This document shows positions 5,779-12,392 of a DNA stretch of 64,000 bases, piece after piece. The notes beneath the pieces are model-generated. The model was not told the origin of the DNA. It saw only the letters and a list, made by a program, of their open reading frames with translations, and did no database searches. The position numbers were made by a program, and so were the translations under genes. This DNA comes from Spirochaetota bacterium (GTDB taxonomy: Bacteria; Spirochaetota; UBA4802; UBA5550), in NCBI GenBank assembly GCA_022709405.1, contig JAKLIV010000004.1, positions 6,652 through 70,651 of the forward strand, written 5' to 3'. Position 1 is the first letter of the stretch; every line of letters begins with the position of its first letter.

Positions 5779-6307
5779 TATCGTAAAAAACGAAGCTTTT
5801 CTGTATTACTGCCAGGGAATCCCCTCGCGGAAGATCGCGGAAATTCTGCGAAACAGGCCGGACTGTGAGAACATATCTCACAGCACAATCGATACCTGGG
5901 CGAAAGAAGCGGACCAGAAAGGCCGCACCTGGGACGACCGTAAGGCCGAATACCTTGCAGTCGTCGAGAAACACCAGGCCGGGGCCGTGGTGCGGCAGCA
6001 CCTGGACATCATTCAGGAGACTGAAAATCTCAAGGAGACCCTCCTGAATGACATTAAGGGCCGCCTCGATTTCAAGACCAAGGACGCGGCGGTGTATGCG
6101 TTTCTCGCGGTCGCGAAATACCAGGACCGCATCAAGGACAAGCGACAGCGTATCACCATCGAGGAACAGGTGACGTTGTTCATCGAGGCCATGAACGAAA
6201 TACCGACGGTGCGCGATGTTTTGTCGCAGTACTGGCAGGAGATCGATCATATATTCCAGGCCAAGGCGAACCAGCTGCAGCGGGAGAAGAAGCGTGACCG
6301 GGATTAA
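5765..6307 (+). CDS. Terminase small subunit (putative, N-terminal HTH)
   Basis: It overlaps the large-terminase start directly upstream. The N-terminal …QGIPSRKIAEILRNRP…STIDTWAKE… is HTH-like. The C-terminus is charged and helical. Confidence 0.6.
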   Translation: MAYSDIVKNEAFLYYCQGIPSRKIAEILRNRPDCENISHSTIDTWAKEADQKGRTWDDRKAEYLAVVEKHQAGAVVRQHLDIIQETENLKETLLNDIKGRLDFKTKDAAVYAFLAVAKYQDRIKDKRQRITIEEQVTLFIEAMNEIPTVRDVLSQYWQEIDHIFQAKANQLQREKKRDRD

Positions 6308-7928
6308 CATCTTCGACATCGCATCGCGCGAAGGGGCAAAACGCTTTGAGCGACTCGATTTTCTCGCCTGGTGCGAACGGTATATCAGGCTTGTCATCGG
6401 CGGCGAGCTCGCCGCCTTCTCACTCGACGGGCACCCCGATCTGTATGAGATGTACACCCTTCCCATGGCACCGCGCGAGACGCACCAGAAGGCGGCCCAG
6501 CGCGGGATCTCCACGTACTGCCTGCTCAGGGTGCTCTGGCTCCTTGATCGCATGGCGATGAAGGCGTCGTATTATTTCCCTACCGACGACGATGTTAAGG
6601 ATTTTTCCCAGGACCGGGCGAACCCGATCATCGATAATTCTGAATACCTGTCGGCGAAGATGCAATACGACAAGGCCGATAACCTCGGGTTAAAACAAAT
6701 CGGGCTGTCGTCTTTATATTTCAGGGGAGTATGGAGCAAGCGAAAGGTCAAATCAATCGATGCCGACATCATCATCAAGGACGAGCTGGACGAGGCCGAC
6801 CAGGAGAACATGATCTTCGCCGAGGACCGTCTGCTGCATTCGATTTTCAAGTACATCATCGAACTGTCGCAGCCGTCCCGGCCCGATTTCGGGATCAATA
6901 AAAGCTTCAAGAAATCGGACCAGCGGTATCTCATGATCAAGTGCCCGGCCTGCGGCCGCTGGAACAATGTGGTTGAGAGTTTTCCAAAGAACCTTTTTTC
7001 CTCGGGTAAAGGCGACCGGTTTAAAGCATGGATCGGGTGCACCAGGTGCAAGCGTGACCTCAATATGAAGACGCTCAGCCTGAAACGCATCGAATGGGTG
7101 CCGAAACATCCGGAACGCAGCAAAGACCACCGGGGATGGCAGGAATCACAGTTGTTCAGCTCGACGGTCGACGGGAAATTCATCTATGACAAGTTCACCG
7201 GCGCGGTGCTGACATCCGAAAAAAAGAATTTCTGGATTTCAATTGTCGGCGTTCCTTATCGTGACTCCGAGCTGTGCCCTATCACCGAATCGCTCATCGA
7301 ATCGATGCAGGGCGACCGGGGGTTTGAAAAAAGCGCCATGAGTTCATTCATGGGAATCGACGTCGGGGACATATGCCATGTGGTGGTTCTGGGCTGGACC
7401 GGGTACCGGCTGCGGGTGATCCACCTGGCCGAAGTGCTGGCCGACGACGAAAAGGGGTTTTGCGATCTCATCGAGACGTATAAAAGCTATTTTGTCATCG
7501 ACGCCATGCCGTACAAGAACCTGGCAAAACGGCTCGCACTCAGGTACCGCGGATGGGGAGCGATCCAGTATTTCAAGGGCGAGGCCCTGCGGGAGAAGAC
7601 CGAGGGTGAGGGAGAATACGAGGTCGCCGTGGTCATGCATGACCGCACCGAGTCGATCGATGAGATGGTCGACATGGCCAGGGAGGGGTTTTTCGTATTG
7701 CCCGACCCTAAAAAAATGAAACCACACGAGCTTGAGCTGTATGAACGGTTCGTCTTTCAACTCAAAAATCTTGAAAAAGAGAAGATCATGGATAAAAGCG
7801 GATACGAGAAAAGCATTTATAAAAAGAACGTGGCCAACCATTTCGGTATGGCGTTGAACTCGGCGTTCATCGCGTTCAGGACCGGCCGCGGACATTTCTG
7901 TCCAGACGTCGATCCAGTCGTGGTGTGA
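6294..7928 (+). CDS. Terminase large subunit, GpA-like
   Basis: Walker-A-like KAAQRGIST (compare the lambda gpA K-S-A-x-x-G-x-S/T motif). A zinc ribbon is present: CPACGRW…CTRCKRD. The GTG 6294 start follows GGGAGAAG, and the upstream in-frame extension is R/S-rich. Confidence 0.85.
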   Translation: MTGINIFDIASREGAKRFERLDFLAWCERYIRLVIGGELAAFSLDGHPDLYEMYTLPMAPRETHQKAAQRGISTYCLLRVLWLLDRMAMKASYYFPTDDDVKDFSQDRANPIIDNSEYLSAKMQYDKADNLGLKQIGLSSLYFRGVWSKRKVKSIDADIIIKDELDEADQENMIFAEDRLLHSIFKYIIELSQPSRPDFGINKSFKKSDQRYLMIKCPACGRWNNVVESFPKNLFSSGKGDRFKAWIGCTRCKRDLNMKTLSLKRIEWVPKHPERSKDHRGWQESQLFSSTVDGKFIYDKFTGAVLTSEKKNFWISIVGVPYRDSELCPITESLIESMQGDRGFEKSAMSSFMGIDVGDICHVVVLGWTGYRLRVIHLAEVLADDEKGFCDLIETYKSYFVIDAMPYKNLAKRLALRYRGWGAIQYFKGEALREKTEGEGEYEVAVVMHDRTESIDEMVDMAREGFFVLPDPKKMKPHELELYERFVFQLKNLEKEKIMDKSGYEKSIYKKNVANHFGMALNSAFIAFRTGRGHFCPDVDPVVV

Positions 7929-10555
7929 ATATGGGACTGATCAATAATATTCGGGGAATGTTCGGGCGAACGATGGTTGCACTGGGAGACGGTTACGTCC
8001 CTGCGCGTCGCGGGTCGCTGGCCGACGAACTGGGAACCCTTCAGAACACGATGGTGTTTTTTTCGAGCGAGTATTTTCGCTTTATGGACATCCTTTCGTG
8101 GCTGTCGGTGTACAACCGCGACGTGAGTCAGACCGTCAAGAAGATCGTGCACCTGGGCAACGTGGGGCATTCCCTGGAGTTTTCAGGGTCCGAGAGGGCA
8201 TGCGAGTCGGCGGCGGACGAGCTTTCTGAATTCGCCCGGTTGCGGTTTCCGAACAACGCCGGGGCCGACGGTTTCATCAACCAGCAGTTCAGGCAGATCA
8301 TCGTCAAAGGCGCGCTGTGCATGGAGGCGGCCCCGTCTCCGGGGTTGAACGAGATATCCGAGGTATACCTCGTAAAGAACAACACCATCAGGTTCAAATG
8401 GAACCGGGATGAACGAGCGTACAAACCGTTCCAGCTTTTCGGCGTTGAGGAAATCCCCCTGAATGAGGAAACATTCTCGTATATACCGCTGTACGCCGAT
8501 GATGAGAGCCCATACGCGATATTGCCGTTTGTGGCTGCGCTGCGGGACATCATCCGCCAGGAGAAACAGTGGCTCAGCATCGACGAGTTCACCGATCGGT
8601 GGGGAATCCTCGGGCTGGTGCACATGGTATTTGACCTGAAGAGAGGCATGAGCGAATCTGAAAATGAGTTCAGACAGCGGGCCGAATCGCAGATGCAAAA
8701 ACGGATTGCGGCGTTCACCGATAAAATGAAATACGGGGTAATCGGCACCGCGAAAGACACGGAGATAAAACACAGCAACGTGTCAAAAAATATCGGCCAG
8801 ATGAAGGAAATCATGCAGTCGACCCACCAGGGCATCACATCGGGCCTCGACATCGACCCGGCGATCCTCGGATACACATACTCGACGACCGAGACCTACG
8901 CCGAGATGGTGTACATGACACTGGTGAACCAGATTCAGAACATCTGGCGCATCATCAAGCGCGGCAATGAATTTGTGTACAACCGACACCTGGCGCTTCG
9001 GCGAATTCCGGTCACCTGTTCGATGCAGTCGAAGACTCCGCCGTCGCTCAGTAAAAAAGACGATGCAGAGGCGAAAAAAATAGACCAGGAACTGGTGCTC
9101 GAGCGAAAGCGTGAGGGGATCATCTCCCCCGACCAGGCCGCTATGGAGCTCGGGTATGACGGGGCTTACAACCAGGATGGATCACCGGCCGGAAGCGGCG
9201 GTTTTAACCGCCTTCGTTTCGACTATAACCGGGAACGGGGAAGGTATGAATTCACCAGGCCGTTTGTGTCCCTGGCGAAAAAAAAAAGCGATGACGCCGA
9301 CTATTCCCGTGTCGTTGAGATAGAAGACGCCTACGCGGCGGAGTTCTTTGAAATCTATAAAGTGAAATACGGCGAGTTTCTCGCCGGTATCGAGGCGCAT
9401 TTTTCCAGCGACGATGTCGCTGCAGCGATCATGGCGGCCATGGAAGAGACGATGGGAGCCAAGCTGCCGGCAGCGGCGAAAGAAACGATCGCGACATGGA
9501 CGAAGAAATCATATGAGATGGGTCTCGGCCAGAAGTGGGACGACGACAAGTGGAAGGTGACCGACAGGGCGGCCCTTGATTTTTTCAAACGGCACGATCA
9601 GCATTTCTTCGGCAAGCAGTTCGAGCATTATTCGGATGATATGCGCACGGTCGTCGAAGACGAGCTGAAGGGCATCAGCGCCTATACCCCGGAAGTGAAA
9701 GCGCGAATGAAGGAGAAGCTCGGCGACGCGTTTGAGCACCCGTATGTGAAAGACTACTATGACCTGTGCATCCGCAACGCGGTGAACAAGTCGAGGAATT
9801 ACGGCAGGACCTTCAAATATGAACGACTGGGGATCGCCGAGATCGAGGTTGTCGCGGTCCTTGACAAAAAGACTTCCCTGATATGCCGCACCATGAACGG
9901 GCGGCGGATCGAGGTCAAGATGCTGGCCGATTACGTGCGTGAGACGCTTGAAACGCCGATGGACGAACTGACCGAAAAATTCGCCTGGCCGACCGAGGCG
10001 GAAGCCAGGGATTACGCGGGGATGTCGACTGGCGATATCATGGGAAAAATCAAATGCAAGTTACCGCCATATCACGGGCGGTGCAGGACCACGACGATCA
10101 TTTCGAAAAAAGTAACGGTGAAGAAATCGAGAGGGGGAAACTTTTCAGGGACGCTGTCATTCAACAATAAAAATGAGCAGGCCAAGAAACGGGGACAGCA
10201 ATTGAAAAACCTGACCAGGGACGAGTTGCTCGGTAAAATGGATTCCCAGATCAGAACGAGCTGGTGGGATGAGACTGTTAAGGAATGGCCTGACGGAACG
10301 ACACAGTCAAGTTATAATTATCATAAAAAAAAGCATGACCGATTCTTCATCAAAAATGAAGGCGGTTTTGATAAGGCTCTAAAAAATATATTGTCTAATT
10401 ATGATAAAGTATATACCTTTGGTGAAACACCCGAGTGGATTTTTTATCGAAATGATTCAGCGGCGTATTTACATATTTCAAACAGAGGAACACGATTGAC
10501 TTTTCATAAGTATCGACGTTTTATACCAACGGAGTCGATGGTTGAAATAAAATGA
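7925..10555 (+). CDS. Portal protein fused to a MuF (SPP1 gp7-type) head-morphogenesis domain, plus a ~160-aa basic C-terminal extension
   Basis: The N-terminal ~460 aa is portal-like by size and position. The MuF hallmarks are …VLDKKTSLICRTMNGRRI… and …PPYHGRCRTT…. The extension runs from ~10070 and has low GC. Confidence 0.75.
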   Translation: MNMGLINNIRGMFGRTMVALGDGYVPARRGSLADELGTLQNTMVFFSSEYFRFMDILSWLSVYNRDVSQTVKKIVHLGNVGHSLEFSGSERACESAADELSEFARLRFPNNAGADGFINQQFRQIIVKGALCMEAAPSPGLNEISEVYLVKNNTIRFKWNRDERAYKPFQLFGVEEIPLNEETFSYIPLYADDESPYAILPFVAALRDIIRQEKQWLSIDEFTDRWGILGLVHMVFDLKRGMSESENEFRQRAESQMQKRIAAFTDKMKYGVIGTAKDTEIKHSNVSKNIGQMKEIMQSTHQGITSGLDIDPAILGYTYSTTETYAEMVYMTLVNQIQNIWRIIKRGNEFVYNRHLALRRIPVTCSMQSKTPPSLSKKDDAEAKKIDQELVLERKREGIISPDQAAMELGYDGAYNQDGSPAGSGGFNRLRFDYNRERGRYEFTRPFVSLAKKKSDDADYSRVVEIEDAYAAEFFEIYKVKYGEFLAGIEAHFSSDDVAAAIMAAMEETMGAKLPAAAKETIATWTKKSYEMGLGQKWDDDKWKVTDRAALDFFKRHDQHFFGKQFEHYSDDMRTVVEDELKGISAYTPEVKARMKEKLGDAFEHPYVKDYYDLCIRNAVNKSRNYGRTFKYERLGIAEIEVVAVLDKKTSLICRTMNGRRIEVKMLADYVRETLETPMDELTEKFAWPTEAEARDYAGMSTGDIMGKIKCKLPPYHGRCRTTTIISKKVTVKKSRGGNFSGTLSFNNKNEQAKKRGQQLKNLTRDELLGKMDSQIRTSWWDETVKEWPDGTTQSSYNYHKKKHDRFFIKNEGGFDKALKNILSNYDKVYTFGETPEWIFYRNDSAAYLHISNRGTRLTFHKYRRFIPTESMVEIK

Positions 10556-10893
10556 GCACTTACGGCAACAGCCCATATGATTACATTGATCTTTTCAAAG
10601 ATCGTTTACTCTATGTCGGCAAGCAATTTGATTCCGAAACCCAGCAAATTGCCGATGCCCGACATGACTTTAACGATGCGGGTTTTACTCTAATCGATGA
10701 GATTAAAAAGATCGATGAAGAAATAATCAAACGAGCTGGAGAATTAGGAAAATATATTCATGATGAAGACCATTATGATGATGAAATGAAATCGTTCTGG
10801 GCCTGGAACCCGGACAAGATCGCTGAAGGGAAGTTTCCCCTTGAAAAGATTCCGGACCACGTCCGTACTCTGGCGAAGGAGCTATATTATTGA
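10552..10893 (+). CDS. Acidic hypothetical protein (113 aa); candidate immunity partner of the MuF C-terminal module
   Basis: ATGA overlap with the upstream gene. It is D/E-rich (…YIHDEDHYDDEMKSFW…) and shares the same low-GC composition. Confidence 0.5.
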   Translation: MSTYGNSPYDYIDLFKDRLLYVGKQFDSETQQIADARHDFNDAGFTLIDEIKKIDEEIIKRAGELGKYIHDEDHYDDEMKSFWAWNPDKIAEGKFPLEKIPDHVRTLAKELYY

Positions 10894-10911
10894 CGCGATA
10901 AAAGGCCATTT

Positions 10912-10932
10912 TTCCGGGGCCGACCCCCGGAA
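10912..10932 (+). terminator. Hairpin after the low-GC cassette (no U-tract)
   Basis: TTCCGGGG (10912-10919) pairs with CCCCGGAA (10925-10932), 19 nt after the stop codon. Confidence 0.3.
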
Positions 10933-11159
10933 TGACACAACGGTAGCCAAAGGAGTTTTTAAACAGTTTTAAACACGTTTTATAAAGCCTGACGGCCCCC
11001 TCAGCAAGGGCCACGGAGTCGGGCAAGCATGACACAGCCGATATTCCTGAAATTCGACCTCCGGTGGGGCGGTTTTCAGGGATACCGGCTTTTTTTATGC
11101 CTGGATAACGGCCAGACCCCGGACATCCTGACAGGGGGATAAAACGCGAGGTGATTATA

Positions 11160-12392
11160 ATGACTGAACGGTTGAAACAGTTGTTCGCGCAACTCAAAGC
11201 ACAGGGACTCACCGTCGATGACAGACGGTGCATGGCGTCATTCAAATTGAAAGGCAGCTTCGAGGGCGCTTCGGCCCCCGGCGCGGAAGGGGCCGTTTCG
11301 ATGAACGAGGATGAAAATCACTTTTACGCCGATTTCAGGGCGCTGTCGGCAATCGTTATCACCGATTATTCAATCGACCTGACGAACAAGGACGTTCTGA
11401 AAAAATCATACAAGCTCCTGAAGGGGCAGACCATCTATAAAAACCATGAACTGGATGTAGATGAATGGGTCGGGGTCGTCGCAAAGACATGGTGGGACGA
11501 ATCGGAAGCAGTCCCTCCGGGAGTCAATTGCACCCTGAAGATCAACAAGAAGTGGAACGAGAAGACAATCGACGGCATCAGGGAAGGCGCGATCCATTCG
11601 GTTTCGACCACGATTTACTTCGAGTATAAAAAGTCCCATGAAATGCCCGACTTCTGGTTCAGGATGGGAGAGGATATAAACGGCCAGATTGTCCGGCTGA
11701 TTGTAACGAAAATCATTTCGTATGGCGAGATATCCCTGGTATGGCACGGGGCCGACGGGTACGCCAGACGATTGACTGCCGAAGGGAAAGGCGGCCAGGG
11801 CCGCGAACCCGGCATAGAGAAAGATATCAACGGAGGTAAAACCGTGAAACTGACACGAACAATCGCAACCATGTTTATGCTCAACCTCGCGTCATACGGA
11901 TTTAATGCCGGTGCTCAGGAAGTTGAACTTGATGACGCCGGGAGCGTTATGCTCATGGGAGACCTTGCAAGGGCTTTCCAGGAGTTGAGACAGAAAAACG
12001 AATCTCTCTCGGGTATCCTGACTGAAACGCTGGGCGCTGACGTAAAACCGGACGATTACCGGAACACTCTGGCGGCAATGTCGGCGCAGGCCAAACTCGG
12101 AAAAAAATATCTCGACGACGTGCGCGCCGAAGCGCTGTCCCTGGCGAAACTCGCCGAGGGCAAGACCGACGACGAGAAGTTCGGCGAGAGCGCCCTGGGT
12201 AAAATGATCCAGAACGCGGACATCGAGACGGCTGTGCAGCTCGGGGACGACTACCGCATCAAGGCTGAGGAGAAATATCCGCTGTCATGCCCGCAATGCG
12301 GGGTAAAGCTTACCCGCGCAAGCGCGAAAATGGATTCAGGCGCGGCCCATGACGAGAGCGGCGGCCTGAATGTCGATAACTACAAAATCTAA
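11160..12392 (+). CDS. Prohead protease (HK97/S78-like) fused to a scaffolding-like C-terminus
   Basis: Candidate catalytic His and Ser contexts are …YKNHELDVDEWVGVV… and …GAIHSVSTTIYFE…. The C-terminal half is a long helical region ending in CPQCG. It lies between the portal and capsid genes. Confidence 0.55.
   Translation: MTERLKQLFAQLKAQGLTVDDRRCMASFKLKGSFEGASAPGAEGAVSMNEDENHFYADFRALSAIVITDYSIDLTNKDVLKKSYKLLKGQTIYKNHELDVDEWVGVVAKTWWDESEAVPPGVNCTLKINKKWNEKTIDGIREGAIHSVSTTIYFEYKKSHEMPDFWFRMGEDINGQIVRLIVTKIISYGEISLVWHGADGYARRLTAEGKGGQGREPGIEKDINGGKTVKLTRTIATMFMLNLASYGFNAGAQEVELDDAGSVMLMGDLARAFQELRQKNESLSGILTETLGADVKPDDYRNTLAAMSAQAKLGKKYLDDVRAEALSLAKLAEGKTDDEKFGESALGKMIQNADIETAVQLGDDYRIKAEEKYPLSCPQCGVKLTRASAKMDSGAAHDESGGLNVDNYKI

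Follow-up and report, generated by a model that had tools for sequence, protein, structure and literature searches.

A tail of a prophage portal-MuF protein and its overlapping acidic partner form an exchangeable two-gene cassette in spirochaete phages: a candidate capsid-borne BECR-type RNase effector and its inhibitor

The stretch of DNA analyzed here, hereafter the window, comprises 64,000 nucleotides from a Spirochaetota bacterium (GenBank assembly GCA_022709405.1, contig JAKLIV010000004.1, positions 6,652–70,651 of the forward strand; window coordinates are used below) and contains the late operon of a myovirus-type prophage. One of its genes codes for a portal protein fused to a MuF-type minor head protein. 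The C-terminal tail of this protein and an overlapping open reading frame (ORF) for an acidic protein of 113 residues, its partner, are exchanged together between related phages. The interpretation that we favor, with somewhat better than even confidence, is that the cassette encodes a capsid-borne ribonuclease (RNase) effector of the BECR type together with its co-translated cognate inhibitor, the two being exchanged between spirochaete phages as a two-gene unit.

The exchange is apparent from comparison with a metagenome contig of 1791 bp, L027, which carries a protein (P0008, recovered in the search of representative sequences) whose MuF end is near-identical to that of the window. The two nucleotide sequences are 92.5% identical over 9919–10131 and 94.8% identical over 10891–11506, with no alignment in between, and base-level inspection against L027 places the breakpoints at 10131/10132 and 10890/10891. 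The left junction directly follows ...GAAGAAATCGAG (window 10131; protein ...KKVTVKKS) and the right one coincides with the small ORF's stop codon (10891). Since such highly similar flanks enclose a segment that cannot be aligned, the tail and the small ORF have been exchanged jointly, as a single cassette; the non-coding region 10891–11150, being part of the conserved right flank, lies outside the exchanged unit. In place of 10132–10890, L027 contains 963 bp with different alleles of both the tail and the small ORF and, in addition, an ORF of 81 residues with a Zn-ribbon. At the protein level, window and L027 are 98.6% identical in MuF and 97.5% in the scaffold protein, as against about 28–35% in the tail and 43% in the small ORF. 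The contig with the closest full MuF core, L028 (82%), likewise has a tail that is just 30% identical. A swapped-in cassette had been proposed in the initial annotation from base composition, with G+C counts (17 of 60 nucleotides at 10381–10440, 32 of 60 at 9841–9900) that prove exact, and the breakpoints now delimit it. The G+C content of 10132–10890 is 0.402 vs. 0.546 in the left and 0.517 in the right flank, which corresponds approximately to the lowest 5% of late-operon windows of equal size and is thus low, though not unique there. Some cassettes contain a third gene directly after the acidic partner, a Zn-ribbon ORF (CxxC...CxxC) of 81–111 residues (L027 944–1189, L022 2422–2697, L019 3508–3843); the one in L027 is part of the exchanged segment. 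This third gene could code for a second immunity protein or a regulator. The window cassette has no such ORF.

The tail comprises 153 residues (724–876) with an isoelectric point (pI) of 9.9 and a net charge of +12 (19 Lys, 10 Arg and 4 His vs. 8 Asp and 9 Glu), and the partner contains 15 Asp and 10 Glu (pI 4.7, charge –10), its ATG overlapping the TGA of the upstream gene as ATGA at 10552–10555. The initial annotation had described this arrangement from the letters of the window, namely an extension of some 160 residues from about residue 716, rich in Lys, Arg and His, followed with an ATGA overlap by an Asp/Glu-rich ORF, and it had expected MuF conservation to end near residue 715. Apart from the slightly different limits this description is accurate: the peptides it quoted are present, and the motif PPYHGRCRTT (714–723) is invariant in the aligned relatives. 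Each of the 16 distinct pairs of tail and partner genes shows the overlap of start and stop; the tail is basic in 15 of them (pI 8.6–9.9), and the partner is acidic in every pair (pI 4.2–5.0). Averaged over 15 pairs, pairwise identity amounts to 62% in the MuF core, 36% in the tail, 31% in the partner's variable part and 65% in its last 22 residues. The identity of the variable part of the partner follows that of the tail (r 0.88; partial r 0.81 given MuF), the corresponding value against MuF identity being –0.07 once the tail is accounted for; these correlations are drawn from related, non-independent sequences and are descriptive, no significance test being attached to them. This co-divergence agrees with the evidence from the breakpoints.

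Contigs of viral, genomic and metagenomic origin were scanned for patterns and whole genomes were searched, and the relatives collected in this way occupy more than 20 distinct loci. When 1.84 billion representative proteins were searched in full with HMMER, the tail had only three true relatives among them. All identifiable hosts belong to Spirochaetota, and the profile of the partner matches 13 of 401 genomes sampled from this phylum; a search of the window's own genome for a second or orphan copy found one pair only. At every locus with a MuF gene of the window's lineage, this gene ends in a homologue of the tail and is followed by a homologue of the partner, with start and stop overlapping or abutting, and among the relatives found there is neither a short MuF nor an unrelated toxin domain at the position of the tail. 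As every relative found carries tail and partner, the tail is a constant element of this MuF lineage and not an occasional add-on. The module of MuF, tail and partner is also carried by Leptospira prophages or plasmids (L037/L043, corresponding to G144:C1 and C2, L038, L059–L068, and NZ_CP092208, a plasmid of Leptospira weilii), identical copies being located on two replicons in genome G144.

The structure of the tail was modeled with AlphaFold2 from an alignment of 12 sequences, with a predicted local distance difference test (pLDDT) of 82 and a predicted template modeling score (pTM) of 0.77. The model consists of a disordered linker, helices 28–38 and 42–54, a small hairpin, helices 73–89 and 92–101, and five strands (105–109, 115–119, 124–128, 133–139 and 149–152). 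A Foldseek search against the PDB with this model returned BECR RNase toxins for six of the nine top matches, i.e. the C-terminal domain of colicin E5 (3ao9), colicin D (1v74, 1tfk, 1tfo and 5znm) and CdiA-CT (8ey4), at E-values of 0.13–1, probabilities of 0.30–0.63 and target TM-scores of 0.43–0.57, each of which is non-significant on its own. Such toxins account for a tiny fraction of PDB entries. The modeled order of helices 73–89 and 92–101 followed by five strands is that of the BECR fold (Iyer et al. 2017; Zhang et al. 2012), and the window protein also contains the residues of the BECR pattern, a histidine (for which arginine may stand) in the helix (H800/H804) and a serine or threonine in strand 4 (T859), the configuration with histidine being described in section 19 of PMC5512222. 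H800 and H804 are invariant in the 12-sequence alignment (A5) and each is found in 15 of 18 sequences of a wider set, the HxxxH of the tails usually being followed by xxEF; the column of T859 contains Ser or Thr in 8 of the 12 sequences and Arg in 4. With BECR RNase toxins as its closest structural counterparts, the tail is probably not the new toxin fold that the initial annotation had considered. The most conserved region among 18 diverse tails is the helix NL(T/S)xxELxxK(I/V), with only its Leu and Glu invariant; it may form a constant docking surface.

Searches at the sequence level do not assign the tail to a described family. Pfam, including its PBECR models, gives no family at E≤10 for any of the 12 tails, none of the known toxin hidden Markov models matches the 153-residue extension, and NCBIfam, PADLOC and Pfam scans of tail and partner yield no meaningful match. 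PDB sequence and profile searches with both proteins return noise only (the polyubiquitin rows contain no passing stretch), and neither the tail nor the partner alone has a tblastn match in GenBank phages. A Foldseek search of the tail model against BFVD gives weak matches only, among them a minor capsid protein and a ParB-type polyvalent protein. In PHROG the tail corresponds to the end of phrog_9907, which is matched by the isolated tails of 5 of the 12 members. An equivalence of the tail with the MuF-C domain of phage Mu, suggested by a shared product name that seemed to place Mu gp30 in phrog_9907, was rejected, since gp30 belongs to phrog_220 and a comparison of the tail profile with gp30 by hhalign gives a probability of 0.02.

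The partner belongs to phrog_9741, a family of unknown function in PHROG (1e-9 for the window ORF; all 12 aligned members match). Its AlphaFold2 model is all-helical with a pLDDT of 90 and finds no match in the PDB with Foldseek. Its conservation is concentrated in a C-terminal motif, G-x-[YF]-P-x-[ED]-x-[IL]-P-[DE]-H-V-[RK]-x-[LI]-A-x-x-L-Y-Y, with residues P96, P101, H103, V104, A108, L111 and Y113 invariant in the corresponding alignment (A6). We infer that this motif would contact the tail at its constant helix and that allele specificity would reside in the variable parts of both proteins. Protein G of phage Mu, considered as a relative of the partner, is unrelated. The two ORFs are real genes, as homologues of both stand next to each other in over 20 independent contigs and both products are modeled with confidence.

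Homologues of the partner are also found alone. Three of the 13 genomes that contain one (G325, G056 and G403) have no MuF-tail gene. G325, a 99% complete genome of the family Leptospiraceae without a tail homologue at E≤0.01, encodes an intact protein of 97 residues (ORF 7456–7749 of L045, i.e. G325:C4:24000-39000), located within a 772-bp insert between repeat 40, which has two mismatches, and the perfect repeat 41 of an array of clustered regularly interspaced short palindromic repeats (CRISPR). This array (repeat ATCATGTTCAGTCTTGAGATTCGATCAACTGAAAC, L045 4474–8089) adjoins cas9, cas1, cas2 and cas4 of type II-B. The copy in G056 (73% complete) is likewise intact with 97 residues, shows the variant PDYVR (L046, G056:C138, 702–995) and sits between an ORF of 80 residues resembling HicB and cydA/cydB, on a 6.4-kb contig without phage genes. 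G403 retains a frameshifted remnant (L042, G403:C13, approximately 1390–1725) with …YPLEDLPE… in one frame and …RELAKALYY in another, next to a gene for an M23 peptidase and a malate-dehydrogenase-like gene. Polymorphic toxin systems typically include orphan immunity genes, and these solo copies are hard to reconcile with a role of the partner purely in head assembly. A more far-reaching proposal, which we consider quite unlikely, is that the partner is a stand-alone defence gene that bacteria capture against capsid-delivered RNase effectors; the insert in G325 would then suggest that CRISPR arrays can be landing sites for anti-effector immunity genes. In this proposal the partner may also recognize the tail in two parts.

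The coordinates of the cassette and of its surroundings are given in Table 1. The database cluster representative of the fusion protein starts at ATG 7931 and has 874 residues. Residues 51–419 match the portal family phrog_3753 (3e-62), residues 475–833 the MuF-type minor head protein family phrog_9907 (6e-46) and residues 581–665 TIGR01641 (SPP1 gp7); the protein has no Pfam match, PF04233 itself being silent, and a tblastn search of its 876 residues against GenBank phages retrieves distant portal or MuF pieces only. The two MuF matches, with a terminase gene upstream and scaffold and capsid genes downstream, characterize the protein as a MuF carrier. The order of the operon is terminase, portal-MuF gene, 113-residue ORF, a gap of 258 bp, scaffold-like gene (scaffold/protease), decoration-like gene, major capsid gene and tail genes. 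Scans for promoters and terminators around the cassette, including the gap 10891–11150, show no signal above chance. Portal and MuF are contained in a single ORF in the window, L001, L006 and L020, and are separate adjacent genes in most relatives, e.g. L028 (481 and 367 residues), L009, L012 and L022.

Table 1. Features of the portal-MuF locus in window coordinates
Feature	Position	Strand	Remarks
Terminase gene	6216–7928		GpA_ATPase match
Portal-MuF-tail fusion gene	7925–10555	+	876 residues from GTG 7925
MuF signature PPYHGRCRTT, residues 714–723, end of the conserved carrier	10064–10093	+	Invariant in aligned relatives
Constant start of the linker, TIISKKVTVKKS, up to the left recombination breakpoint	10094–10131	+	Still 92.5% identical to L027 (nucleotides)
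Exchangeable cassette: variable tail domain and entire small ORF	10132–10890	+	759 bp, G+C 0.40, no nucleotide similarity to L027
Most conserved tail helix, residues 762–777, NLTRDELLGKMDSQIR	10208–10255	+	Helix 42–54 of the AlphaFold2 model; L763 and E767 invariant, K771 nearly so
BECR-like core, residues 796–876	10310–10552	+	Two helices (73–89, 92–101), then five strands
Histidine pair H800-x3-H804 (YHKKKHDRFF), helix before the sheet	10322–10336	+	Proposed catalytic site
T859, strand 4	10499–10501	+	Alcoholic side chain, as expected for many BECR RNases
Acidic all-helical partner, candidate inhibitor/immunity protein	10552–10893	+	113 residues; start overlaps upstream stop
C-terminal motif of the partner	10828–10890	+	
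Conserved non-coding right flank of the cassette	10891–11150	strandless	94.8% identical to L027 from 10891 on (nucleotides)
Scaffold-like (scaffold/protease) gene	11151–12392		

MuF toxins with small immunity genes next to them are an established class in temperate phages (Jamet et al. 2017, PMC5576092), and two cases have been tested, Apk2 together with its immunity proteins and Bxa together with Bsi/BAH (PMC11699363); according to the latter account, from 2024, no RNase-type MuF toxin had been tested experimentally. The present locus resembles this class in its prophage setting, in a MuF carrier that stands beside or is fused to the portal, in a C-terminal extension after the conserved end of MuF, in an ORF of less than 150 residues immediately downstream and in the joint exchange of tip and small ORF. 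As in these polymorphic families, alleles of the tail are replaced on a conserved carrier with exact breakpoints; all tips, however, belong to one superfamily, the relatives carrying alleles of a single family that is unannotated and lacks a Pfam toxin domain. The MuF toxins of Jamet et al. stem mainly from Firmicutes (PMC5576092), whereas the hosts are here Spirochaetota and the window carrier is a covalent portal-MuF fusion. A second comparison concerns polyvalent proteins, for which the succession of portal, MuF and PBECR has been described as the simplest architecture (Iyer, Burroughs, Anand, de Souza, Aravind 2017, PMC5512222). The window protein similarly combines portal, MuF and a BECR-like domain, with the histidine in a helix before a sheet of four to five strands and Ser or Thr in strand 4, and the packaging and injection with DNA predicted for the PBECR class are likewise proposed for the tail. 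Unlike that class, the tail is matched by no Pfam PBECR model at E≤10, and it has a constant, co-varying partner gene, a dedicated partner not being described in the parts of PMC5512222 considered here. The best structural matches, colicin D/ImmD, colicin E5/ImmE5 and CdiA-CT/CdiI (E. coli O32:H37; 1v74, 3ao9 and 8ey4), also join a basic RNase or RNase-like domain to an acidic, tightly linked inhibitor gene, in a cassette that follows a conserved delivery region. They differ from the present pair in that there is no sequence similarity, with TM-scores of 0.43–0.57 only, and in their mode of delivery, i.e. receptor-mediated import or contact-dependent secretion instead of the phage capsid. The partner, moreover, has an unmatched fold and a conserved C-terminal motif, unlike ImmD, ImmE5 and CdiI.

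In the mechanism that we propose, the last 150 or so residues of the portal-MuF protein would constitute a basic effector domain with a BECR-type RNase fold like that of colicin D, colicin E5 and CdiA-CT. The capsid protein would take this tail into the virion, and the tail would probably enter the next host cell together with the DNA. The product of the overlapping gene would be the cognate inhibitor and act by binding, its coupled translation keeping the RNase silent while particles assemble; supplied alone, it would protect a cell against the incoming effector. Exchange of the two genes among related phages would generate the alleles.

Several observations weigh against an RNase effector with a cognate inhibitor. 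The tail has no sequence link to any RNase in Pfam, PDB profile or NCBIfam searches, and the structural matches are, as stated, individually non-significant. In four close relatives the Ser or Thr of strand 4 is replaced by Arg, and the Leptospira tails lack the HxxxH pair altogether (LKTSWKKRV, LSSQWKKRQ, with Arg at the second position) while the partner is kept. The module is universal in its lineage and invariably drawn from these two families, whereas the tips of classic polymorphic toxins are unrelated to each other. A C-terminal motif as strongly conserved as that of the partner is unusual for an immunity protein, and the correlations between the two proteins are, as noted, of a descriptive nature. 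Since the tail is covalently fused to the portal, its release from the capsid would require proteolysis; and since no promoter signal of the cassette's own was found, expression of the partner in lysogens, which protection of kin would need, is unsupported. The MuF toxin/immunity pair of the initial annotation is partly supported, by the architecture of the class, the joint exchange and divergence and the solo partners; the tail is, however, not a sporadic add-on, the same families being present in every relative found. That annotation had also named what would speak against it, an extension conserved in all relatives as a structural domain: the tail is indeed present in all relatives found, and nothing shows it to be structural.

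Many of these points are shared by an explanation that we hold to be unlikely, though it deserves attention, in which the tail is a lineage-specific, non-catalytic part of MuF that binds RNA or DNA or docks to the portal, the partner is an assembly chaperone or head accessory protein, and allelic exchange is the ordinary mosaicism of phage head genes. The pair's location between the MuF and scaffold genes throughout the lineage, the conserved motif of the partner, the retention of the partner by Leptospira members without the histidine pair and the placement of the region in a "minor head protein" family by PHROG all fit such a role, for which a precedent may be seen in the inactive PBECR (MuF-C) domain proposed for Mu gp30 (PMC5512222). 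It accounts poorly, however, for exchange borders drawn exactly around these two elements only, with a divergence far above that of the flanking head genes, for the histidine pair kept in most members, for best fold matches that are RNase toxins and for solo partners in non-phage contexts of genomes without a tail homologue. The roles could also be reversed, the partner being the actual cargo, a DNA mimic or anti-defence protein, and the tail a tether by which this cargo is loaded into the capsid and co-injected, with co-evolution of the pair since tether and cargo must bind; this we regard as very improbable. Complementary charges in 15 of 16 pairs with coupled translation and the co-divergence of the partner with the tail would be expected here as well, and a capsid protein as carrier suits the packaged-effector logic of polyvalent proteins. 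Conversely, an anti-defence cargo of phages has no evident purpose as a solo gene in a bacterial chromosome or a CRISPR array, the model of the partner resembles neither a known DNA mimic nor any other solved fold, and the conserved histidine pair and the BECR-like core of the tail would be left unexplained. We thus retain an RNase effector with its cognate inhibitor as the preferred interpretation.

On this interpretation, the tail and its partner would represent a new family within the known MuF-toxin and PBECR class, to which two unannotated families, the BECR-like tail and the partner (PHROG 9741), would be added, and which would be extended to the prophages of spirochaetes, including those of Leptospira. 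The two natural alleles located on near-identical backbones in the window and in L027 provide a ready test of allele-specific neutralization, and through the solo partner genes it can be examined whether captured immunity genes serve bacteria against phage-injected effectors.

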